Shown here: piece after piece, positions 13,220-60,422 of the stretch
Layout: the number at the start of each line of letters is the position of its first letter
Numbering within the stretch: position 1 is the first letter of the stretch
Source of the DNA: Patescibacteria group bacterium
GTDB taxonomy: Bacteria > Patescibacteriota > Microgenomatia > CAYGWK01
DNA length: 64,000 nucleotides
Reading direction: 5' to 3'
NCBI GenBank assembly: GCA_049322615.1
Contig: JBMORX010000009.1
Location: 57,120-121,119 of the forward strand
Program-made: the position numbers and the translations under genes
The notes under the pieces: model-generated
The model's input: only the letters and a program-made list of their open reading frames with translations
Told to the model about the DNA's origin: nothing
Databases searched by the model: none

Positions 13220-15330
13220 AGAGTTTTAAGAATAGCGCCAAATTTGCTTTTTACTGCGGAAATTATTTTTTCTCTTATTTTCTCTACCTCTTTATCGGTC
13301 AAAGTTTTCTTAGGGTGCTGATAGATAATTCTGAAAGTTCGAGTGTCTCCATGAATATCGATTAATTCAACACTTTGAATAATTGAACTAGACACTTTAA
13401 TTAATTGAAGTAGATCTCCAATTAAAGTCTTTGGTGGAACAACAAAAGCCAAATCCTCAACAATAGCAGGATATTTGGGAATGGGGGTAAAGGTTTTAGT
13501 TTTTTTGGCAAGTAAAATTAAAGCTTCAAAATCAAGGTCAAGAACAACCGTTTTGTTTAAAATTTCGAAATTTGCCAAAACCCGAGGGTTGACTTCACCA
13601 ATTGTTCCTAAGACATTATTGGTCGTTTCCATAACCGCTGCTTTTCCCTGGCTAAAATAGGGCTCTCTTCCTACCCAAGGCTTAAAATGGATATCCTCAA
13701 TTCCCAAATGCTCGAAAATAATCTCCGAGATGCCCTTTAAGTAGGAAAAGTCTTCCCCAGTTACCAAACAAGTAAGTCTGGTTTTTTCCAGAGGGAGATT
13801 TCCTTTTTGGGGAAGATAAACATTAGCCATCTCAAAAATTTTCACTTTGGGAAAATTGGCTTGGTTTTGGGCGACTGTTTTAAGCAGACTCTCAAGAAGG
13901 GAAATCCTTAAGTATTCAAGATCGCTGGTGAGCGGGTTTTTGAGTTTAAGATGGTCTTCGGTCTTTAGTCCAGTTTTTTGAATTGAGTCTTTTCCGATGA
14001 AGGAATAATTGTAAACTTCGGAGAAGCCTTTGCCAACAAGCACCTCTTTAATTTTATTCTCATATTCAAAGAACATCCCTATTTTTCCTTTTTGAGGTTG
14101 AGGTTGGGGTAAAAGACCGAACAAAGGATGAAGCGGAGGAATATTGCCGGGAAGTCTAAAGTAGCCATAGATTCTGGCGATTTCCTCAATTAAGTCTTCT
14201 TCGTGAGATATGTCTTGGGCGCGAAAGCTTGGAACGGAGAAAGTGAGAAGTGCCGTGCGTCGCCAGAGGCTACTCGCCGTTGCGTAGCCACGCTTTGGCG
14301 GAGCGCGGTGCCGGCGGCGCGAGAAATGAGAAGTGAGAAGTGAGAAGCCAAGAGATTCAAGGATACTGATGATTTTATTCTTTGGAATTTCGATGCCGAT
14401 GATTTTATTGACTAAATCAAGATCCAGTTTGATTTTTTTGCTTTTTTGGGGATTAGGATAAATATCTATTAATTTACTGGCGACCCTTCCTTGGCAGAGG
14501 TCTTCCATTAGCTTTACTCCTTGAGAAATGACAGGAATAATTCCTTCTAAATCAATCCCTCTTTCAAATCTCACCGCTGCCTCGGTCCGGTGAGCCAGAG
14601 CCATCGACGTCTGTCTGATTCTGACGGGATTATAAGCCTGAACGAAGAAAAGGACTCTTTTAGTGTTTTCGTCTATTTGGCTATTTTCCGCACCCATGAT
14701 ACCGCAAAGATCAATTAATCTTTCTTTTCCATCCTCGATAACGATATCTCCACCTGGAAGGGTCCGGGTAGCCCCATCGAGAGTGGTAATTTTTTCTCCT
14801 GGTCGTGACAGCCTCATAATCATTTTTGCCCCAAGAATTTTGTCGTAATCAAAAGTATGGATTGGTTGTCCGGTTTCGATCATTAAATAATTGGAAATAT
14901 CAACCACATTGGAAAGTGGTCTGATGCCAACTTTTTCTAATCTCTCAGCCATCCATTTTGGAGAAGGGGCAACCTTTACCTGGTCGATAACGACAGCAGA
15001 AAACCGAGGACAGAGAGTCTCATCTTTGATTTCTACGGAAAGATTAAATTTTGGATTTTTCATCTCTAGAGGAAGAATCTTGGGTGATGCAAATTCCGCT
15101 TTTATACCGTATCCTGAAAGAGCCGCCGCCGCTTCCCGGGCGATGCCGCGAACCGATAAACAATCATAGCGATTGACAGTTATCTCGATTTCCAAAATCT
15201 GGTCATCTTTTTCCGAATGGATTTTTTCCACTGATTGGCTACAAAGAGAAAGAACTTCAGCCACCTTCTCTGGGCTTGCTTCAGTTTTAAGAAAGTCTTT
15301 CAACCAAGAAAAAGGAATAAGAATATTCAT
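13216..15330 (-). CDS. pheT: phenylalanine--tRNA ligase beta subunit carrying an in-frame 37-aa insertion encoded by a GC-rich repeat
   Basis: B3/B4, B5 and FDX-ACB-like blocks; lies downstream of pheS; insertion at 14237-14348. Confidence 0.88.
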   Translation of the reverse strand: MNILIPFSWLKDFLKTEASPEKVAEVLSLCSQSVEKIHSEKDDQILEIEITVNRYDCLSVRGIAREAAAALSGYGIKAEFASPKILPLEMKNPKFNLSVEIKDETLCPRFSAVVIDQVKVAPSPKWMAERLEKVGIRPLSNVVDISNYLMIETGQPIHTFDYDKILGAKMIMRLSRPGEKITTLDGATRTLPGGDIVIEDGKERLIDLCGIMGAENSQIDENTKRVLFFVQAYNPVRIRQTSMALAHRTEAAVRFERGIDLEGIIPVISQGVKLMEDLCQGRVASKLIDIYPNPQKSKKIKLDLDLVNKIIGIEIPKNKIISILESLGFSLLTSHFSRRRHRAPPKRGYATASSLWRRTALLTFSVPSFRAQDISHEEDLIEEIARIYGYFRLPGNIPPLHPLFGLLPQPQPQKGKIGMFFEYENKIKEVLVGKGFSEVYNYSFIGKDSIQKTGLKTEDHLKLKNPLTSDLEYLRISLLESLLKTVAQNQANFPKVKIFEMANVYLPQKGNLPLEKTRLTCLVTGEDFSYLKGISEIIFEHLGIEDIHFKPWVGREPYFSQGKAAVMETTNNVLGTIGEVNPRVLANFEILNKTVVLDLDFEALILLAKKTKTFTPIPKYPAIVEDLAFVVPPKTLIGDLLQLIKVSSSIIQSVELIDIHGDTRTFRIIYQHPKKTLTDKEVEKIREKIISAVKSKFGAILKTL
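14237..14348. repeat. GC-rich 74-nt hairpin core flanked by GAGAAGT/GGGAAGT heptamers, in frame in pheT
   Basis: core gtgccgtgcgtcgccagaggctactcgccgttgcgtagccacgctttggcggagcgcggtgccggcggcgcgag matches 56210-56312 exactly by eye; nested palindrome GGCTAC..GTAGCC. Confidence 0.85.
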
Positions 15331-16550: not shown

Positions 16551-16575
16551 GGCAATTTACTCGGCGAATCCAGGA

Positions 16576-16618
16576 TAGTCCTGGAATCCTACTTGACACA
16601 GGATAATCCTGGGTTTTA
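16576..16618. repeat. REP-like element family A (paired hairpins CCAGGATAGTCCTGG), left flank of transposase 1
   Basis: palindromic units; the same family recurs at 17278, 24046, 26245 and 57032. Confidence 0.8.
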
Positions 16619-16629
16619 GAGTAGAGTTA

Positions 16630-17286
16630 GTGGTGCAGTATTATCATCTTTATAACCGCGGTGTAGACAAACGGGTTATTTTTCTTGACGATACTGATAG
16701 ACAGCGATTTCTTGATGCTGTTAGGTTAGCAAGACTTTCGAATTCGCCCAGGCTTTCTTGGTTAAAAAGACAAATTAAAATTGGTAACATTTCTCCAACA
16801 CACCTTGAAAAATTGGAAGAAAAATATGGACCACCTCTTTTAGATATCGTTACCTACTCTCTAATGCCTAATCACTTCCACTTTCAAGTTAAGGAACTGA
16901 TAGAAGATGGAGTGAGTCAGTTTTTTCGAAAACTGGGAACAAGCTATGTAATGTATTTTAATATTAAACACGAAAGAACAGGACGATTGTTTGAATCCCA
17001 ATATAGGTCTGTGTTAATAGGAACTGACGAGCAATTAATTCACCTTTCTCGTTATATCCATACCAATCCTTACAATTCTTCCAAGAGAGACATTTCTCTT
17101 GAACAACTAAAAACTTATTCTTGGACGAGTCTCCCTGATTATCTAGGTACTCGTAAGCAGCCATTTTGTGACCCTACGGAAGTTATGTCATTTTTTAACT
17201 CACCTGAAGATTATTGGGAATTTTTAAAGGGAAATATTGATAAAGAAGAAGTTTTGCCCCCCGAGCTACTACTCGATCCAGGATAG
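16630..17286 (+). mobile_element. IS200/IS605-type HUH Y1 transposase, REP-associated (RayT-like)
   Basis: HUH motif LMPNHFHF and a downstream Tyr (RYIHTNPY); 218 aa; REP-A copies on both sides. Confidence 0.8.
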
Positions 17287-17326
17287 CCCTGGATTCGTGC
17301 CTAGTCCAGGATAGTCCTGGATTTTT
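17278..17326. repeat. REP-like element family A, right flank of transposase 1
   Basis: ccaggatagccctggattcgtgcctagtccaggatagtcctgg. Confidence 0.8.
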
Positions 17327-21793: not shown

Positions 21794-22666
21794 TTAAAGT
21801 TTCGTTAGGAATTCCAGAGATCTTCTTCTTAGCAAAATTCCTTTAAGATAAGCACGCTGAAGGGGTGTATTTAAGTTTTCTTTTAAATTTTTGTCTCCGG
21901 TTGAGGAAATTAAATCGTCTATTTCTTTATCAGAAACCTGAATCTTTTCTTCTTCAGCCACCTTATCAAGAGAGAATTGAAGCTTAAGGTCATTTACAAT
22001 TCTTTCTCGGTATTCTGCTCGTAACTGCTCGGCACTTTTATTAATTGAATTAAGATATTGGTCAATTGTTAAGCCTAAAGTGTTAGTTTGATTAATTAAA
22101 TTAGAAAGGGCACGCTTAACTTCGTCCTCCATTAACATCTCTGGTAAATCTACTTTGACAATTTCTAATAATTTTTGGATTACCTTTTGGGTCTTTTCGT
22201 CTTCCGTGCCTTCCTGAGAATTCCGTGTTTCCGTGGTTGCGGGCTTTTTATGCGGGACCCATATCTTCGTTGGGGCAAGCGCTTTTCTTATCTCTTCTTT
22301 ATACCTTCCCAAGTGCACCTCCGGTGTTTCGCAGGTTGTGGCTCTAATTTCCCAATCTTCACCTTCTTTTGCTTTTAAAAGTTCAACTTTAGGGGTAAGG
22401 ATTGGTTTTAAATTATGCTCTTTGACTGCCTCTATATACACTTTGGGAACCAGACGCTGGAGCACCTTCTCGTAAACTTTTGATTTATCAATTTTTTCCT
22501 CGACTAATTTCTTTGGGGCTTTTCCTTTTCTAAATCCAGGAATTTCTGTTTCTTTAACAATTTCCTCCAAAGCCTGCTCATAAGACTTTTTTACCTCATC
22601 GGTGGCAATCGTAATCGTTAATTGAATTTCACCGGTTCCGGTTTTTGCCAGGATTGATTTTGCCAT
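21794..22666 (-). CDS. tig: trigger factor (short form)
   Basis: N-terminal ribosome-binding block IPGFRKGKAP; 290 aa. Confidence 0.8.
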   Translation of the reverse strand: MAKSILAKTGTGEIQLTITIATDEVKKSYEQALEEIVKETEIPGFRKGKAPKKLVEEKIDKSKVYEKVLQRLVPKVYIEAVKEHNLKPILTPKVELLKAKEGEDWEIRATTCETPEVHLGRYKEEIRKALAPTKIWVPHKKPATTETRNSQEGTEDEKTQKVIQKLLEIVKVDLPEMLMEDEVKRALSNLINQTNTLGLTIDQYLNSINKSAEQLRAEYRERIVNDLKLQFSLDKVAEEEKIQVSDKEIDDLISSTGDKNLKENLNTPLQRAYLKGILLRRRSLEFLTKL

Positions 22667-23935: not shown

Positions 23936-24853
23936 ATGAGACTGTCAAGAAAAGAATTAAGAAAGAGAGCACAGAAAGCTTGGAAACTTCTAAATCCTTG
24001 TCGGGTTTGTCCGAGGATTTGCGGGATCAACCGTCAGAGGCCAAATTCCAGGATAGTCCTGGAATCGTGCCTAGCCCAGGATAGTCCTGGATTTTGTCGG
24101 ATGGGGGTAAAACCACGGATAAGTTCCTATCATGCCCATTTTGGCGAAGAATCTTGCCTTGTCGGTACAAATGGTTCAGGAACAATTTTCTTTTCCTCTT
24201 GCAATCTTGCCTGTGTTTTTTGTCAAAATTGGGAAATTTCCCAATTGAGAGAAGGAGAGGAAGTGGAAACTGAGGATTTAGCTGAGATGATGGTTTTTCT
24301 TCAAGAGCGTGGTTGTCATAATATAAATCTTGTCTCCCCTACTATTTGGGTGCCCCAGATTCTGAAGGCTTTGGTGGTTGCAATTGATCAAGGATTACAC
24401 CTCCCATTGGTTTATAACACTGGTGGATACGATTCAGTTGAGACCCTAAAACTTCTTGATGGGGTTATCGATATTTATATGCCAGATATTAAATATTCAG
24501 ATTCAAAAATCGCCCTGAAATATTCCCTGGTTCCAAACTATTGGAAGGTGGTTCAGAAAGCAGTTGCCGAAATGCATCGCCAGATTGGAGATTTGGTGAT
24601 TAGTGACCAGGGACTAGCGACTAGGGGTTTGTTAATCAGGCATTTGGTTTTACCAGAAGGTTTAGGGGGAACAGAAAAAGTGATGAAATTTATCGCCTCT
24701 CTCTCCAAAAATTCTTATGTCAATATTATGGACCAATACTATCCAACCAATAAAGCCCATCTTTATCCGGAAATCAATCGAAAAATTACTCCCGAAGAAT
24801 ATCATAAAGCGGTTGAAACAGCTAAAGGGTATGGTCTGCACCGATTTAATTAA
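23936..24853 (+). CDS. radical SAM enzyme (PflX / AmmeMemoRadiSam-like) with an in-frame REP-A insertion near the N-terminus
   Basis: CNLACVFCQNW CxxxCxxC motif; N-terminal CxxCPRxC..GFC pattern interrupted by 15 aa (NSRIVLESCLAQDSP) encoded by REP-A at 24046-24092. Confidence 0.75.
   Translation: MRLSRKELRKRAQKAWKLLNPCRVCPRICGINRQRPNSRIVLESCLAQDSPGFCRMGVKPRISSYHAHFGEESCLVGTNGSGTIFFSSCNLACVFCQNWEISQLREGEEVETEDLAEMMVFLQERGCHNINLVSPTIWVPQILKALVVAIDQGLHLPLVYNTGGYDSVETLKLLDGVIDIYMPDIKYSDSKIALKYSLVPNYWKVVQKAVAEMHRQIGDLVISDQGLATRGLLIRHLVLPEGLGGTEKVMKFIASLSKNSYVNIMDQYYPTNKAHLYPEINRKITPEEYHKAVETAKGYGLHRFN
24046..24092. repeat. REP-like element family A copy in frame inside the radical SAM CDS
   Basis: ccaggatagtcctggaatcgtgcctagcccaggatagtcctgg. 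Confidence 0.8.
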
Positions 24854-31963: not shown

Positions 31964-32719
31964 TCAAGTTTTTTGGCAGAGGACAAAAATTGAGGGACCA
32001 AAAAAAGGTGAGAAGTGGGAAGAAAGAAGTGAGAAGTATTTCTCAAGAAATAGGAGGATTGGCAGAGGAATAATTTTTTTGACTAGAGGGTGGCGGAAGT
32101 TTGAGACTGAAAGAGAAGAGGAAACCTTAAAACCTGCTTTTTCCAACTCTCGATAAATAAATTGAGGATGATGGTTGAGAAAGGGAATGGTTGAAGCGGC
32201 GATGGATTCGAGTGAGCGCTGGTCTGAAGGTTCTAGATTTGAAGTGAAGCCAAAATCACCTCTTATCCAGGCACGAAGACGAGCCCGGAAATGAATTTTG
32301 TTAGCAAATTCCAAGATTAAAAAACCATTTGGTTTTAGGACCCTGGAAGCCTCAAGGAACACTTTTTGGGGGTTTTGAAGGTGATGGACCACCCGAATCA
32401 TTAAAGCAACATCAAAACTGCCATCTTGCCCTGGAAGCCTCTCCCCTCTCCCCTTTCTAAATTCAATATTTTTAAACTTTTTTAGATTTTTTTGAGCAAT
32501 GTTTAATAATTTTTCTGAAGGATCAACTAAAAGAGAGTGTTTAAAAACTGGAGCATAAACTTCGGCAAGCCTGCCAAATCCCCCACCAATGTCTATTAAA
32601 CTGTCCTTTTTGGGAATTTTTAAAAAAAATTTCTTTAAGGCAATTTTTTCTGCCTCATCCTCATACTCTCTTCCCTGCCAAAACTTGGGGTAGTTGTAAA
32701 AATCGTATGGTACAGCCAC
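31964..32719 (-). CDS. class I SAM-dependent methyltransferase
   Basis: motif I LIDIGGGFGRLAE; GAGAAGT/GGGAAGT heptamer stretch in frame near the C-terminus (32005-32040). Confidence 0.8.
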   Translation of the reverse strand: MAVPYDFYNYPKFWQGREYEDEAEKIALKKFFLKIPKKDSLIDIGGGFGRLAEVYAPVFKHSLLVDPSEKLLNIAQKNLKKFKNIEFRKGRGERLPGQDGSFDVALMIRVVHHLQNPQKVFLEASRVLKPNGFLILEFANKIHFRARLRAWIRGDFGFTSNLEPSDQRSLESIAASTIPFLNHHPQFIYRELEKAGFKVSSSLSVSNFRHPLVKKIIPLPILLFLEKYFSLLSSHFSPFFGPSIFVLCQKT

Positions 32720-50507: not shown

Positions 50508-53456
50508 TTATCTTAGAATTTCTCTTAAAAATTGTCCAGTGTAGGAGTTTTTAGCCCTCGCCACATCCAATGGTGTTCCGCTGGCGACAATATAGCCTCC
50601 TTTGTCTCCTCCTTCAGGACCAAGATCAATTATCCAGTCGGCGTTTTTAATTACATCAAGATTGTGTTCGATAATGACGACCGTATTGCCTAAACTAACC
50701 AGTCTTCGCAAAACATTTAAAAGTTTCTCCAAATCAGCAAAATGAAGCCCGGTCGTTGGCTCATCCAAAATATAAAAAGTTTGACCAGTGGCTCTTTTCC
50801 CAAGTTCTGCGGCAATTTTGACTCTTTGCGCCTCACCTCCAGAAAGTGTCGGCGCCGGTTGACCAAGATGAATATATCCTAAACCGACGTCAGAGAGAGT
50901 TTTTAGTTTTTCGAAAAGACCAGGAATATTTTTGAAAAATTCTAAAGCCTCCTCTACTGTCATCTCCAGGACTTCAGCAATATTTTTACCCTTAAAGGCG
51001 ACTTCAAGAGTTTCCGAGTTATATCTTTTTCCTTGGCAAACTTCGCAATTAACATAAACATCAGGTAAAAACTGCATTTCTATTTTAATCTGCCCCTCGC
51101 CTTGGCAGGCTTCACACCGACCATTTTGGACATTAAAAGAAAACCTTCCAGGCTTATACCCCCTTATCTTTGCCTCAGGTAGCTGGCTGAAGAGGTCACG
51201 AATGTAGGTAAAAACACCGGTATAAGTGGCTGGATTTGACCTTGGAGTTCTACCAATTGGTGATTGGTCAATCAAAATGACCTTATTGATAAATTCTCCC
51301 CCCTTAAGACCCCCAAATTTACCTGGTTTTTCTTTATGAAAGGGGTGAAGTTGCTGCGCTAGAGCATGATAAAGAGTCTCAACTACCAAAGTTGACTTCC
51401 CTGAACCTGAAACTCCAGTGATACAAATAAATTTCCCCAAAGGAAAGGTAACGTCGATATTTTTAAGATTAAACTGGGAACACCCTAACAAAATCAGGTT
51501 TTCCTTCTTGCACCCCTGGGGTGAAACAGCCTCACACCTGCGGAAATTGTTATTCTCAATTTCAATTCTTTTTCTTCCCGCCAAATAGTCTCCTGTTAAG
51601 GAATAGTGGTTGGTCTTTATTTGCTGAACAGTTCCTTCTGCCACGATCTCGCCCCCATGATCACCAGCCCCAGGACCGAAATCCAAAATCCAGTCGGCTG
51701 ATTCCATCATTTCTCGGTCGTGTTCAACGACAATCACCGTATTTCCTAAATCGCGAAGTCTTTTTAAAGTCTGGATTAATTTTTTATTATCCCGCTGATG
51801 GAGTCCAACCGATGGTTCATCTAAAACATATAAAACTCCAGATAAACCCGAACCTATTTGGGAGGCAAGCCTGATTCTTTGACCCTCACCGCCAGCCAAA
51901 GTAGCCGAAGGTCTATCCAAAGTTAAATATTCAAGCCCAACGGATTTCAAAAACGAAAGTCTTTCTCTTATTTCTTTTAAAATTGGATTGGCAATTTTTA
52001 ATTCTTTTTCGGAGAGTAATTTTTGAGTTTCCAAAAGCTCAATCCACCCCAAGGCTTTGTCAATAGAGAATTGAACAACATCGACAATCGACTTTCCTTC
52101 AATGGTTATTCCTTGTGATTCTCTCTTAAGGCGACTACCTTGGCAGGTTGGACAAATTTCCTGCCTCATATATTTTTCAATTTCTTGCCGGACAAAGTCC
52201 GATTCAGTTTCGGAAAATTTTCTCTCAAGTTCAGGGATTACTCCAGGATAAACTTCATAAATTGAGGTCATTCTGCCATAACGGTTTTCTCCCTCAACTC
52301 GCCAAACTTCGTCACCTGTTCCATAAAGTAAAACTTTCTTTTGTTCCAAAGATAAATTTCCCAGAGGCGCATCAAGCCTTATTCCATATTTTTGGCAGAC
52401 AGTTTTTGCAATCCTTGAGAACCAGGTGTCGTGAAAAAACATTCTGGCAAAAGGCAAAATTCCCCCTTCATTTATGGTTAGCCGGGGATTAAGCAAAAGT
52501 TCGGGGTCAACCTTCAAAAGCGCCCCTATTCCTGAACAAGTTGGACAGGCGCCGTAAGGAGAATTAAAAGAAAAAGTTCTTGGTTCAATTTCCGGTAAAG
52601 AGAGATTGCAGGTTGGACAAGCAAATTTTTGGGAAAAAAGATGGTCTTCCATTTTCTTTGGTTTTTCCGGGAATTCAAAAGAGGCATCCTTAACTTGAGA
52701 AAGAATCACCAAACCATCAGATAATTTTAAGGCTTGTTCAACCGCATCAGTAATTCTCGTTTTGAGATTTGAAAAAGAGACAGGGTCTTTTATTTGACTT
52801 TTCTCAAGAGAAATTCGGTCAATCACAACTTCAATTGTATGTTTATTGGTCTTAATTAAAACCAAATCTTCCGAGAGTCCAAAAACTTGACCATCAATTC
52901 TGGCTCGGGTAAATCCTTTAGACTGAAGATTTGTGAAAAGTTGGCTAAATTCGCCTTTTCTGGATCGAACAACCGGAGAAAGAATCAGAAATTTAACCAC
53001 TTTAAATGATTGAAGTGCCACTTTAATTAATTGAAGTACCTGATCGACTATTTGTTGAGAACTCTGCTGACTGATTTCCTGACCGCAAGAAGGACAATGG
53101 GGATGACCCACTCTGGCAAAAAGAAGTCTTAAATAATCATAGATTTCCGTAACCGTGCCGACAGTTGAACGCGGGTTATGAGAAACGCCTTTTTGATCAA
53201 TGGAAATTGCTGGCGAAAGTCCTTCGATTAAGTCAACATCTGGTTTATCCATTACCCCCAAAAACTGGCGAGCATAGGCAGAAAGGCTTTCAACGTATCT
53301 TCTTTGCCCTTCAGCATAAATAGTGTCAAAAGCCAAAGAAGATTTTCCACTGCCGGAAATTCCCGTAAAAACCACCAGTTTATTCTTGGGAATCTCAACA
53401 TTGATGTTTTTAAGATTGTGTTCTCGGGCTCCTTGGATGACAATTTTTTCGTTCAC
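50508..53456 (-). CDS. uvrA: excinuclease ABC subunit A with a ~15-aa in-frame REP-B insertion
   Basis: two ABC ATPase modules ([10 protein letters not shown]; [10 protein letters not shown]) and zinc-finger Cys clusters; insertion [15 protein letters not shown] at 51507-51546. Confidence 0.9.
51507..51546. repeat. REP-like element family B (TTGCACCCCNGGGGTGA...ACACCTGCGGA), in frame inside uvrA
   Basis: same family as 54147-54186 and 54861-54902. Confidence 0.8.
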
Positions 53457-54146: not shown

Positions 54147-54186
54147 TTGCACCCCCGGGGTGATATGGCTTCACACCTGCGGATAA
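54147..54186. repeat. REP-like element family B copy, flank of transposase 2
   Basis: cttgcacccccggggtgatatggcttcacacctgcggataatcg. Confidence 0.8.
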
Positions 54187-54821
54187 TCGATTAATTGATG
54201 CTTGATTACCTCTAGCTGTTTTCCATAGTCCTCTTGATCATAAACAAATTTTTTATATTCATCTACCGATTTAAACTGGCTTAACACTATTTCTTTATGG
54301 CAAAGATTTTTATTGGTAGCTCCTAAATATTCCTTGAAAGAGGAAAAATCATACGATTCTAAAGACTTCACAATATATCCAACAAGTGGATTAAGATGAA
54401 TATATCGAGATAAATGAACAAGTTGCTCGTTGGTCTCGATATGTACTGCTTTAAACTCTCCTTGAAAAATTGGCCCATTCCTCTTGTACTTAGTGTTAAA
54501 GTATTTTGTGTAACTGTTACTTAGTTTACTAATAAATTCGGTTATTCCACCCTCTCTTACTTGTTGAAGAAGAAAATGAAAATGGTTAGGCATTAAGCAG
54601 TAGCAAACAAAATAGATTATTTTCTTTGTTGAGTTAATAAGCTTGGTGGATGGACTAAAAAAAGAAAATCTCGGTTTTGGATCTTCTATTTGGTAATAAA
54701 GCATTGTTTTTATAAATCGCTGGTGATCTCTATACCGAGTAAAAATAGGCATTTGAGCTATACCACGATTTAAAATATGATAGTATTCTCCATCGACAAA
54801 AGGCATTATCCTTGAAGGCAT
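54171..54821 (-). mobile_element. IS200/IS605-type HUH Y1 transposase, REP-associated (RayT-like), second copy
   Basis: YCLMPNHFHFLLQQ HUH motif and the Tyr region LSRYIHLNP; flanked on both sides by REP-B. Confidence 0.8.
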
Positions 54822-54860
54822 ATATCTATTAAATCACAAATAACCGAGGGTGTAAAGCTA

Positions 54861-54902
54861 TTGCACCCCAGGGGTGAAATACGAACACACCTGCGGATTA
54901 AG
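54861..54902. repeat. REP-like element family B copy, flank of transposase 2
   Basis: ttgcaccccaggggtgaaatacgaacacacctgcggattaag. Confidence 0.8.
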
Positions 54903-54906
54903 AGAC

Positions 54907-57003
54907 TTAACTAGCCGTAATTTCCTTAATCTTGTCCCTAATTTTGGCTGCGAGTTCAAAGTTTAGATCGCGAGCTGCTTCTTTCATTTCTTTGGTTAAG
55001 CGCTTGACTAGCCTTAGGCGATCTTCAGGTGTCAGTTGTCCAGAATCAAGATGTTTAAGTTCTGACAAAGCAGATTGATAACTTCTGATTCCGAAAATAA
55101 ATGGGTCTATTCTTTCTTCGCGGACTACCAGTTTTTCCCTAATTGGCTTTTGAATACTCCGAGGAGTAATTTTGTGTTTTTTATTGTATTCAAGTTGAAT
55201 GTTTCTTCTCCGGGAAACTTCAGCGATTGCCCGCTTCATTGAACCAGTCAGATTATCAGCATACATAATTACCTGTCCATTTATATGCCTAGCTGCCCGA
55301 CCCATGACCTGAATCAAAGAGGTTTCTGAGCGCAAAAACCCCTCTTTATCCGCATCTAAAATTGCCACCAAAGAAACTTCGGGCAAATCAAGTCCTTCTC
55401 GTAAAAGATTAATCCCCACCACCACATCATATTTTCCCAAACGCAAATCATCTAAAATATCAGACCGGTCAAGAGTCTGGATCTCTGAATGAAGGTAATG
55501 AACTTTTACCCCTTTTTCCTGAAGATATAAAGCCAAATCTTCAGCCATTCTTTTAGTTAAAGTCGTTACCAGAACCCTTTCTCTCGCTTTGACCCTTTTG
55601 TCTATTTCTAAAATCAAGTTATCAATCTGTCCCTCAGTTTTCTTAATGGAAATCTCTGGGTCGGGAATTCCAGTTGGGCGAATAAGTTGTTCCACGGGCT
55701 TGCCAGTTTTTTCAAGTTCCCAGTCTGCTGGGGTGGCTGAAGTATAAATTGTTTGGGGAATCCTCCTTAAAAATTCTGCAAATTTCAGAGGTCGGTTATC
55801 TAAAGCCGCCGGCAGTCTAAACCCAAATTTGACCAAGGTTTCCTTTCTTGAGCGGTCGCCATTATACATCCCTTCAATTTGGGGAATGCTCATGTGCGAC
55901 TCGTCAATAAATAAAAGCCAATTATTCTGGTAAGGCTCTTTAAAATAATCAAGTAAAGTGTAGGGTGGCTCGCCAGGTTTTCGACCATCAAAATAGCGAG
56001 AATAATTTTCAACCCCATTGACATATCCAGTTTCTTCAATCATCTCCAAATCATAATTCACTCTTTGTTCTAAGCGGTGAGCCTCAAGTATCTTTCCTTG
56101 GGAACGGAGTTCTCTAAGTCTTTCTTCCAGATCTTTCCTTATTTCCACAAAAACATCTGAAAGACTGGCTGGATCAGTCATATAGTGTTTGGCAGGATAG
56201 ATTAAGACAGAAGTGGGAAGGGCGAAGTGCCGTGCGTCGCCAGAGGCTACTCGCCGTTGCGTAGCCACGCTTTGGCGGAGCGCGGTGCCGGCGGCGCGAG
56301 AAGTGGGAAGAATTTTGCCATTTAGGGGATCTATTTTGGCGATTTTCGTAATCCTCTCTCCCTCCATTTCAATTCTGACAGCCACATCTTCGTAGGCTGG
56401 GAAAATGTCAATCGTGTCTCCTCTGACTCGGAAAGTGCCTCGGTGAAAACCATAGTCTGCCCGATCGTATTGAAGACGGGTAAGCCTTCTTAATATTTCC
56501 TGGCGATCAATTTTTTGTCCAATTTCTACTTCTAAAACAAAATGTCCATATTCTCTGGGCGAACCAAGGTTATAAATACAAGAAACTGAAGCAACAATGA
56601 TGGTATCTGGTCTGGTTAAAATATTGGTCGTAGACTCCAGTCTTAATTTGTCAATTAATTCATTTATTTCTGTTTCTTTTTCAATATAAGTGTCGGTTTG
56701 GGGAATATAAGCCTCGGGTTGATAATAATCATAATAAGAAACAAAGAAACAAACCGCGTTCTCGGGAAAGAAATCGCGAAATTCTTGATAAAGCTGGGCG
56801 GCTAGGGTTTTGTTATGAGAAATAACCAAAGTCGGTCGTTGCAGTTTGGCAATGACATTAGCCATGGTAAAAGTTTTTCCCGAACCAGTTACCCCAAGTA
56901 AAACTTGATGTTTTTCCCCAGCCCGAATTCCGGTCACCAATTTCTCAATCGCCTCCGGCTGGTCTCCGGTGGGTTTAAAAGTTGAATGGAGTTTAAATTC
57001 CAT
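54907..57003 (-). CDS. uvrB: excinuclease ABC subunit B carrying an in-frame ~34-aa insertion encoded by the GC-rich 74-nt core
   Basis: [10 protein letters not shown] Walker A, helicase motifs, C-terminal UvrB/UvrC interaction helix; insertion at 56210-56312. Confidence 0.9.
56210..56312. repeat. GC-rich 74-nt hairpin core flanked by GGGAAGT heptamers, in frame in uvrB
   Basis: core identical to 14250-14323; the frame of insertion differs from the pheT copy. Confidence 0.85.
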
Positions 57004-57031: not shown

Positions 57032-57090
57032 TCCAGGACTCTGATTCCAGGACTATCCTGGAACAGGCACGAATCCAGGACTATCCTGGA
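57032..57090. repeat. three REP-A hairpin units (inverted orientation) in the divergent uvrB-lexA promoter region
   Basis: ccaggactctga / ttccaggactatcctggaa / tccaggactatcctgga. Confidence 0.8.
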
Positions 57091-57183
57091 TCACCCCCAG
57101 CTTTGCCAAGGCTTCGGCGAGGTCTGCGTCCCGATAAAAATCGGGACTTGACATTTGGGTTTTCTTCGTATTATGATTAAACC

Positions 57184-59927: not shown

Positions 59928-60422
59928 TTATCCCAATGCTTTTAAATTTATTTCTCGCAACTTTGGATCTTCTTTGAACTTTTCCGCCAGTTTCTCTTCG
60001 AGGGCACGCCTGACGCTTTCCTTATCGACTACCCCAGATTCTTCAATTATCTTTCCCAAAATAATTATATTCCAAACTTTAGCCGGCAACTTCACACCTC
60101 TAAGGTGTGCGGCTATTGACACCTCGGGAATTTTGTCCGAAACGACCGCTGGTCCTAAAATTACTTGAGTATTTTTACCAATATAGCCTTTTACCCGCTC
60201 AATTGCCCGGTCGCAAAAAATTGCTACCAAATCTCCCTTCTCAAACTTTGGATAGTCGCAATCACTAATTTTGACAAAAGCCAAGGAGACCCCTCCACGC
60301 TGCTCGACCCCAAAGTTTGGAATTATTGAGGCTTTTTTTTCTTCCAAAAAGGCTGAATAAGCCAAAATTTCTGCCGCCAGCTGAACTCCCTGACCTCCTT
60401 CTCCGGCAAATAAAATTTTCAT
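59928..60422 (-). CDS. porC: pyruvate/2-oxoacid:ferredoxin oxidoreductase gamma subunit
   Basis: MKILFAGEGGQGVQ N-terminus. Confidence 0.8.
   Translation of the reverse strand: MKILFAGEGGQGVQLAAEILAYSAFLEEKKASIIPNFGVEQRGGVSLAFVKISDCDYPKFEKGDLVAIFCDRAIERVKGYIGKNTQVILGPAVVSDKIPEVSIAAHLRGVKLPAKVWNIIILGKIIEESGVVDKESVRRALEEKLAEKFKEDPKLREINLKALG

Follow-up and report, generated by a model that had tools for sequence, protein, structure and literature searches.

The 64,000-nt stretch of a Microgenomatia (Patescibacteriota) contig analysed here, below called the window (all window coordinates refer to the full stretch), carries on its reverse strand at 54171..54821 the gene of a 216-aa HUH single-tyrosine (Y1) transposase, Y1B, placed between two copies of a short palindromic unit, REP-B. 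A third copy lies in frame within uvrA. The question raised by the locus is whether the gene and the units belong together as a transposase and its own repetitive extragenic palindrome (REP), i.e. as a REPtron, as an earlier note on this DNA proposed under the name "REPtron 2", or whether the units have some other role. The comparisons presented here make it probable that 54147-54897 is a locus of the REPtron/TIRtron type (TIR, terminal inverted repeat), in which a low-copy Y1 gene of group 1 of the REP-associated tyrosine transposases (RAYT), or TnpA-Y1 subclass 2.1, is bracketed by its cognate repeat, one unit of which has been copied into the uvrA linker.

REP-B is a 37-nt unit with the structure TTGCACCCC-N-GGGGTGA, 8 nt, CACACCTGCGGA, and it is present in the window in three copies. 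The pattern TTGCACCCCNGGGGTGA starts on the forward strand at 51508, 54147 and 54861, against a mean of 0.01 matches in shuffled sequences, and five or more matches were obtained in 0/100 shuffles. The block CACACCTGCGGA follows 8 nt past each of these matches (at 51533, 54172 and 54886; 0.04 expected). The copies differ at the central base of the palindrome and in the spacer, the rest of the 37 nt being constant, and three parts can be distinguished: a GC-rich stem-loop CACCCC-N-GGGGTG (stem 5-6 bp, loop 3 nt), a variable spacer some 10 nt long and the block ACACCTGCGGA. All three copies are also present in L001, an independent Logan assembly from the same population. A regular expression covering the whole stem-spacer-block superfamily found six matches in the window and 0.0 in 60 simulated windows.

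The unit at the 3' end of Y1B (54147..54183, forward strand) is of the downstream type described below, with the hairpin CACCCC-C-GGGGTG, a 10-nt spacer and the block (T)CACACCTGCGGA. The block of this unit, in reverse complement, gives the last codons of the gene, TAT CCG CAG GTG TGA (..YPQV*), so that the stop codon (54171-54173) falls within the repeat, as had been noticed earlier, and the unit overlaps the last four codons together with the stop. The same overlap of ..DYPQV* with the 3' unit recurs in L014, one of the orthologous loci introduced below, and in several orthologous proteins.

The protein itself passed the cutoff of Pfam Y1_Tnp (PF01797; E 4e-7, 30.6 bits, cutoff 23), and with 47.5 bits it missed the curated cutoff of 80 of the NCBIfam equivalog NF047646 REP_Tyr_transpos. 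When Y1B was aligned with 30 homologues, H80 and H82 of the HUH motif NHFH (PNHFHF) and Y140 and N144 of the tyrosine motif YIHLNP (RYIHLNP) were invariant and P145 nearly so, and also FQ (GPIFQG) and SS (DFSSF) were kept throughout the 31-sequence alignment. The tyrosine motif has the form Y---NP, which marks RAYT or class 2 TnpA-Y1 proteins, and not the form Y---Q, which marks IS200 (PMC6006769). A search of the PDB with the single sequence gave no match, and the profile search was weak (2xm3 at 0.017, 4er8 at 0.074); a comparison of folds was therefore needed. The AF2 model (predicted local distance difference test, pLDDT, 86) includes a helical C-terminal tail at residues 162-211, and its best fold match in the PDB with Foldseek was 4er8_A (E 1.2e-6, TM 0.68 on the target), which is E. 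coli TnpA-REP bound to a REP hairpin. The next matches were the TnpA proteins of ISDra2 and IS608, and 4er8, 2xm3 and 2vjv all had probability 1.00. Fold and motifs establish the gene as the RayT-like transposase that it had been called earlier. Judged from its motif signature, Y1B is a Y1 transposase of the RAYT superfamily, RAYT group 1 or TnpA-Y1 subclass 2.1 ("TIRYT"). Homologues were numerous (7972 matches); the best 120 of these were 60-72% identical to Y1B and about 215 aa long, and their named sources were Levy-, Curtiss- or Microgenomates bacteria.

Whether the repeat accompanies the gene also elsewhere was assessed from 20-kb samples of seven other Microgenomates contigs with an orthologue (L006, L009, L011, L013, L014, L016 and L018). 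The hairpin (A/C)CACCC-NNN-GGGTG(T/G) was found at both gene ends in 7/7 of them, with the block at one or both ends. It had been reasoned in advance that the pairing would fail if REP-B copies elsewhere were not associated with the transposase; since the same kind of unit flanks the orthologues in every other contig examined, this objection does not hold.

The repeats are also specific to the paralogue. The window contains a second, paralogous Y1 gene, Y1A ("REPtron 1"; 16630..17286, forward strand), the product of which is 35-37% identical to Y1B, and this gene is flanked by the double hairpin REP-A, TCCAGGATAGTCCTGGA (16566-16616 and 17274-17324), with additional copies at 24044, 26241 and 57043. 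Comparison of both the proteins (35% identical) and the repeats bore out the earlier claim that Y1B has a repeat of its own, as REP-A and REP-B are unrelated. In L011, a paralogue 48-50% identical to Y1B bears its own variant, CCACCTAAGGGGTGG...ACACCTAGGGA, at both ends, and a dispersed copy 11 kb away (L011:14809) matches this variant and not that of the neighbour. Such paralogue-specific repeats are the pairing expected of RAYT-type systems.

Alignment of 25 units separated two types. Units at the 3' end of the gene have GTGAAA or GTGGAA after the stem, a 10-nt spacer and (T/A)CACACC, whereas those at the 5' end have GTGTTTT after the stem and an 11-nt spacer with the end TTTACACC. The dispersed or extra copies carry the 3'-end-type signature (GTGAAA/GTGGAA...CACACC/TACACC, 10-nt spacer); these are the uvrA unit, a unit beside a tRNA gene in the Shapirobacteria contig L002 and, in both the window and L018, the outer unit upstream of the gene.

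The uvrA gene (50508..53456, reverse strand) is intact and encodes a full-length protein of 982 aa, which has the Pfam domains UvrA_inter, UvrA_DNA-bind and ABC_tran and aligns end to end with solved structures (2r6f, E = 0). The dispersed unit within it (51508..51544, forward strand, downstream type) is read in frame on the reverse strand and encodes about 13 residues. The insertion lies in the linker between the ATPase modules, after SLTGDYLAG at the end of module I and before the first strand of module II, about 30 residues ahead of the second Walker A. The linker is 30 aa long in the window, 23 and 25 aa in the closest relatives (84-86% identical) and 20-42 aa in Microgenomates; among UvrA homologues generally the mode is 21 aa, with 20-22 aa in 82/86. 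In comparison to the relatives and the mode the net gain is thus 5-9 aa. The earlier description of the third copy as an in-frame extension of UvrA was correct, and the extension is lineage-specific and in the linker, but its size is not the about 15 aa first given. This linker is also the only place where UvrA of the window differs by an indel of at least 3 aa from the UvrA proteins of L019 and L021 (85% identical), with +7 and +5 aa, respectively. In the AF2 model of residues 541-760 the insert has pLDDT below 50 and no secondary structure, with flanks above 90, and it sits in a hypervariable linker that is predicted to be disordered. The REP-B unit is open in 4/6 reading frames; 2/3 frames are open on the coding strand at the uvrA site, so that the insertion would be tolerated, in line with the varying length and predicted disorder of the linker. 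The comparison of UvrA sequences argues that the uvrA copy is a lineage-specific, recent insertion. The relatives at 84-86% identity came from a full-length query. A query with a 220-aa fragment gave only distant partial proteins because the region is too conserved, and a search of 50% clusters returned mostly fused double UvrA proteins.

A related unit, ACACCTCTAAGGTGT, 10 nt, ACACCTCGGGA (60095..60129, forward strand), is situated in frame in the pyruvate:ferredoxin oxidoreductase (POR) gamma gene (59928..60422, reverse strand). POR-gamma exceeds its L019 counterpart by 9 aa, precisely at this unit, and no cognate Y1 gene for the unit was found within the window.

How the locus would work we infer from fold, motifs and repeat anatomy, by analogy to E. 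coli TnpA-REP and to IS608/ISDra2 TnpA; this applies to catalysis, to the strand used, to the cleavage site and to Y1B as the mover of the uvrA unit. Y1B would recognise and bind the small stem-loop in single-stranded DNA, cut and rejoin at or near the conserved block, and now and then copy a 3'-end-type unit to a new site. One such copy would have landed in the disordered linker between the ATPase modules of UvrA.

Several points weigh against this reading. The published account of subclass 2.1 found no REP-like structures (PMC6006769). Folded as single-stranded DNA, single REP-B units did not gain over shuffles (z +0.3 to -1.3). Since hardly any stem position varies, covariation is uninformative and not significant (38/500 shuffles). 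Pairing of the 3' arm of the hairpin with the block is equally compatible with the pair counts, and a palindrome bound as duplex by a dimer would give the same stem pattern. The 3' block doubles as coding sequence (..PQV*), which may account for part of its conservation. The exact two-block pattern was found in only one other organism in the genome_contigs and metagenome_contigs collections, among which the source genome is not included; this was a single Shapirobacteria contig (L002, identical to L005, with L004 from a sister sample). A match in a GC-rich actinomycete (L003) was taken as chance, and the viral collection gave 0 matches. With one non-flanking REP-B copy in 64 kb (that in uvrA) and one other organism in the scans, a true dispersed family is not established. 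As to the uvrA copy, the unit of 37 nt does not match the gain of 15-27 nt in UvrA, and the linker DNA is not alignable with that of L019 and L021, so that neither the insertion boundaries nor any target duplication can be defined and the event cannot be reconstructed.

One alternative, with which the unremarkable stability of the single hairpin agrees, is that the palindromes are duplex-DNA operators, bound by the helical C-terminal tail of Y1B or by another regulator and controlling the Y1 gene, the copies in uvrA and beside the tRNA gene then being incidental or regulatory and not the result of transposition. Their core, a perfect 6+6 palindrome around a free central base, has the form expected of a site for a dimer, and the central loop bases at the two gene ends are sometimes in direct, not inverted, register. 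The site lies about 45 nt upstream of the ATG and next to a conserved leader: between the inner block and the ATG there is a 22-nt 5' leader on the reverse strand (54822..54843), TTATTTGTGATTTAATAGATAT, which recurs as ..TTTGTGATTTAAT.. / ..TTTATGATTTAAT.. upstream of the gene in the window and in L009, L011 and L013. Also, C-terminal extensions in subclass 2.1 resemble helix-turn-helix (HTH) domains (PMC6006769). In Y1B, however, Pfam detected no HTH family at E <= 0.01, and an operator leaves unaccounted for the presence of another unit at the 3' gene end, the related unit in the POR-gamma gene and the complete 37-nt unit, with its asymmetric block at the right spacing, in a uvrA linker where close relatives have nothing of the kind. 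We regard the operator explanation as rather unlikely.

The orientation of the units bears both on the REPtron-type reading and on a second alternative, given below. In L006, L009, L011, L013 and L014 the layout is inverted and REPtron-like: at either end of the gene ACACCTGCGGA lies between hairpin and gene, about 10 nt away from the hairpin. This inverted layout with the blocks facing the gene is the ancestral and normal one of the lineage. In the window the upstream hairpin (54864-54876) is common to a perfect outward unit (54861-54897, forward strand) and a degenerate inward unit (54844-54876, reverse strand), the block of which, ACACCCTCGG, holds the ancestral REPtron position upstream of Y1B. 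Together they form a two-faced composite palindrome of 54 nt (54844-54897; inverted-repeat pair I8) with matches on both strands, which as single-stranded DNA beats shuffles (z -4.25 on the forward and -3.2 on the reverse strand). The perfect outward unit is direct relative to the 3' unit, and the direct arrangement arises because a 3'-end-type unit shares the upstream hairpin in this two-faced element. The flanking units had been described as direct, which is right for the perfect copies; this orientation is a derived state, the ancestral layout being inverted and the upstream unit facing both ways. Also L018 shows the two-faced architecture (L018:9915-9987), with an outer unit that matches the 3' unit of L018 almost exactly, also in the spacer.

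Duplications of parts of units were seen in L014. Upstream of the orthologous Y1 gene the hairpin and its 5' flank (ACTTACACCCCAGGGGTGTTTTCC) are tandemly duplicated (L014:9887-9960), and downstream of it GGGGTGTAACTTCTA is duplicated (L014:10657-10702), which suggests local amplification of half-units.

With perfect direct units in both the window and L018, these units could be taken for the left and right ends of an autonomous insertion sequence (IS) of the IS200/IS605 type, a 750-bp element moving as a single-stranded circle. The HUH/Y1 fold and the small subterminal hairpins are shared with IS608 and ISDra2, both perfect units of the window are on one strand, Y1B orthologues occupy at least five different gene neighbourhoods, and group 1 has been described as the most IS-like group of RAYTs. 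The inverted layout at 5/7 other orthologous loci, however, means no excision in the manner of IS608. The protein has Y---NP and not Y---Q and is 216 aa long vs about 150 aa, there is no tnpB, and no second identical copy of Y1B was found in the window or in any 20-kb locus, the paralogues diverging at 35-50% identity.

The syntenic relative L019 provides an empty reference for this question and also for the recent insertion in uvrA, the linker of which has no insert in L019. It shares with positions 48-62 kb of the window the order POR subunits, VTT, LexA, uvrB, X, uvrA, transglutaminase and UvrC. Between uvrB and uvrA it has no Y1 gene, as an insertion sequence would predict, and a reversed LysM gene is found there instead; in its 18.8 kb no REP-B-type unit or hairpin was detected. 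The segment of the window that differs from L019 is 1420 nt long, holds in addition to Y1B an unrelated gene of 191 aa, and meets a unit at one edge only. The whole locus as a clean insertion relative to L019 was ruled out, given that the unrelated gene is in the segment as well and L019 has a different gene there. The insertion sequence explanation is thereby left unlikely. That the units act as RNA, as terminators or stabilisers of co-directional uvrB-Y1B-hyp-uvrA transcripts, is very improbable: between 48 and 57 kb every gene has the same strand, the units lie in very short intergenic gaps and REPs elsewhere have been proposed as RNA elements, but the stem has only 5-6 bp and is not followed by a T-run, the terminator and promoter scan found nothing terminator-like at either flanking unit, the Rfam scan of the units gave no relevant family, and the uvrA copy is inside an open reading frame (ORF) that needs read-through.

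If the REPtron/TIRtron-type reading is followed, the kind of system has to be specified. RAYT group 1 (Bertels 2017) equals TnpA-Y1 subclass 2.1 (Quentin et al. 2018, PMC6006769), which largely corresponds to the TIRYT/TIRtron (Di Nocera et al. 2013). The motifs NHFH, FQ, YIHLNP and SS of Y1B fit the signature that Table 1 of PMC6006769 lists for subclass 2.1 (NH[YF]H, FQ, Y[IV]HLNP, SS), and Y1B also has the extra C-terminal tail. Low copy number and divergent paralogues, two at 35% identity in the window and two at 48% in L011 (as seen in 64 kb and in 20-kb samples), are features of RAYT or class 2 proteins. The flanking inverted repeats recall those of TIRYT/TIRtron loci, which carry GGGG-W-S-A, extend over the ends of the gene, can be self-complementary and form families of moderate abundance at most; the full TIRYT motif GGGGWSAS is matched in part, GGGGTGA(A/T) and GGGGTGT(T/A) fitting it at 6-7/8 positions, with the last base (A/T here) off. 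Y1B differs from subclass 2.1 in its length (216 aa vs a median of 238), in the C-terminal HTH with similarity to Bac_DnaA_C, HTH_23 or HTH_28, which in Y1B is not detected by Pfam although a helical tail is present, and in its host, a member of Microgenomates in the candidate phyla radiation. It differs also in the three-part anatomy of REP-B, which even orthologues with 60% identity have kept; for this subclass Quentin et al. found no REP-like structure (PMC6006769).

The canonical REPtron has inverted flanking REPs whose long hairpin bears a conserved 5' GT[AG]G at its foot, and tens to hundreds of copies of the REP in the genome (Nunvar 2010; Ton-Hoang 2012). With its E. coli representative (TnpA-REP/RayT, 4er8, GTAG REPs in bacterial interspersed mosaic elements, BIMEs) Y1B shares the best structural match, Y---NP, a paralogue-specific repeat family and units in frame within genes. 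A gene bracketed by cognate inverted palindromes is found in the five inverted orthologous loci; in the window the degenerate inner block alone keeps the inverted position, the perfect copies being direct. Unlike canonical REPs, the units start with TT(G/A)CACCCC and have no GT[AG]G foot, the stem is 5-6 bp vs at least 10 bp, the conserved block is about 10 nt 3' of the stem, and abundance appears low in view of the one non-flanking copy. Together with the 47.5 vs 80 bits at the NCBIfam equivalog, these differences contradict the label "REPtron 2" in its canonical sense, the signature being that of subclass 2.1 / TIRYT.

Genes such as uvrA, uvrB and those of tRNA synthetases count among the most frequent hosts of in-frame REPs, with uvrA cases in Opitutus and Thioalkalivibrio and uvrB cases in Rickettsia (Di Nocera 2013), and Quentin et al. 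suggested that REPs inserted in frame occupy flexible loops (PMC6006769). The inserts of the window, with uvrA, uvrB, pheT and POR-gamma as hosts, resemble intragenic REPs and Rickettsia palindromic elements (RPEs) as short palindromic in-frame inserts, but the repeat sequence and the phylum are others, and a single 37-nt unit differs from dimers or RPEs of at least 100 nt. Both the type of system and in-frame REPs in uvrA, uvrB and tRNA-synthetase genes are thus already known in other phyla, and it is the lineage that is new; the literature search found no paper tying REP/TIR-associated Y1 systems to Patescibacteria.

Besides REP-B, the window contains several other repeated elements. At 14241-14333 and 56218-56310 there are two copies, 96% identical, of a roughly 93-nt element rich in GC (about 70% vs 40% in the genome). 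The element lies in frame, in different reading frames, in pheT (B5 domain) and in uvrB, and is flanked by GAGAAGT/GGGAAGT heptamer repeats, to which tandem (GGGAAGT)n runs at 2077-2111 and 32007-32041 are related. Exactly at this element UvrB has 24 aa more than its counterpart in L019, and it exceeds solved UvrB structures by about 28 aa. In relation to L019, the net gain of residues in uvrA, uvrB and POR-gamma is 3-7 codons below the size of the inserted element, which suggests that host codons were lost or loops trimmed afterwards. Short repeats have in this way recently entered four essential genes of the window in frame: uvrA, uvrB and POR-gamma, as seen by direct comparison, and pheT, as indicated by its domain length.

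Two of the additional REP-A copies have particular surroundings. The double hairpin at 57043-57093 is in the divergent lexA-uvrB intergenic region, in an orientation opposite to the other four copies; this region is about 180 nt long in the window vs 66 nt in L019, and a hairpin GTCCCGATTTTTATCGGGAC adjoins the REP-A copy. The copy at 24044-24094 falls in a radical-SAM ORF (23936..24853), within what is annotated as its N-terminal portion and past the CxxCPRxC motif, and encodes NSRIVLESCLAQDSPGF. Comparisons made for a gain of REP-A here did not decide the matter, the gene in L013 being non-homologous and the NCBIfam match too weak. The earlier statement that both repeat families are tolerated inside ORFs therefore applies to REP-B in uvrA; for REP-A in the radical-SAM ORF it is plausible.

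The hairpin TTTTTCCACCTCGGGG(G)TGGGACAGNC occurs three times around a DUF3800 gene (41550-41564, 42659-42693 and 42812-42846), one of the copies having a CCACCCTGGGA block, with no Y1 gene nearby; these hairpins resemble yet another variant of the superfamily to which REP-B belongs. An AT-rich imperfect palindrome of 20 nt, CACTTTAATTAATTGAAGTA, is present in tandem pairs within pheT (13371-13412) and uvrA (52998-53038) and as a single copy at 22033-22052. In uvrA it lies near residue 140, where UvrA is 7 residues longer than Geobacillus UvrA; no length difference was found at this site between UvrA of the window and that of L019.

Members of the candidate phyla radiation have very small genomes, in which repeats are usually said to be few. 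The locus extends REP/TIR-associated tyrosine transposases to this radiation and, for RAYT group 1 / subclass 2.1, defines the anatomy of the repeat more clearly than published work has done, with an unusually good comparative control in L019. It leaves the known picture of how such systems work unchanged, and it repeats in an unrelated phylum the puzzling link of intragenic REPs with excision-repair and tRNA-synthetase genes. As a long shot, the Y1 enzyme of Microgenomates might be ancient and mostly vertically inherited, copying the 3'-end unit only and preferring coding loops of DNA-repair and translation genes (uvrA, with other small elements in uvrB and pheT), each time replacing a few host codons. 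If this were true, the system would time and again create variation in the linkers of nucleotide-excision-repair proteins and would not be a neutral passenger, and it would offer a tractable model of why intragenic REPs are enriched in nucleotide-excision-repair genes, an enrichment reported in 2013 and left unexplained.

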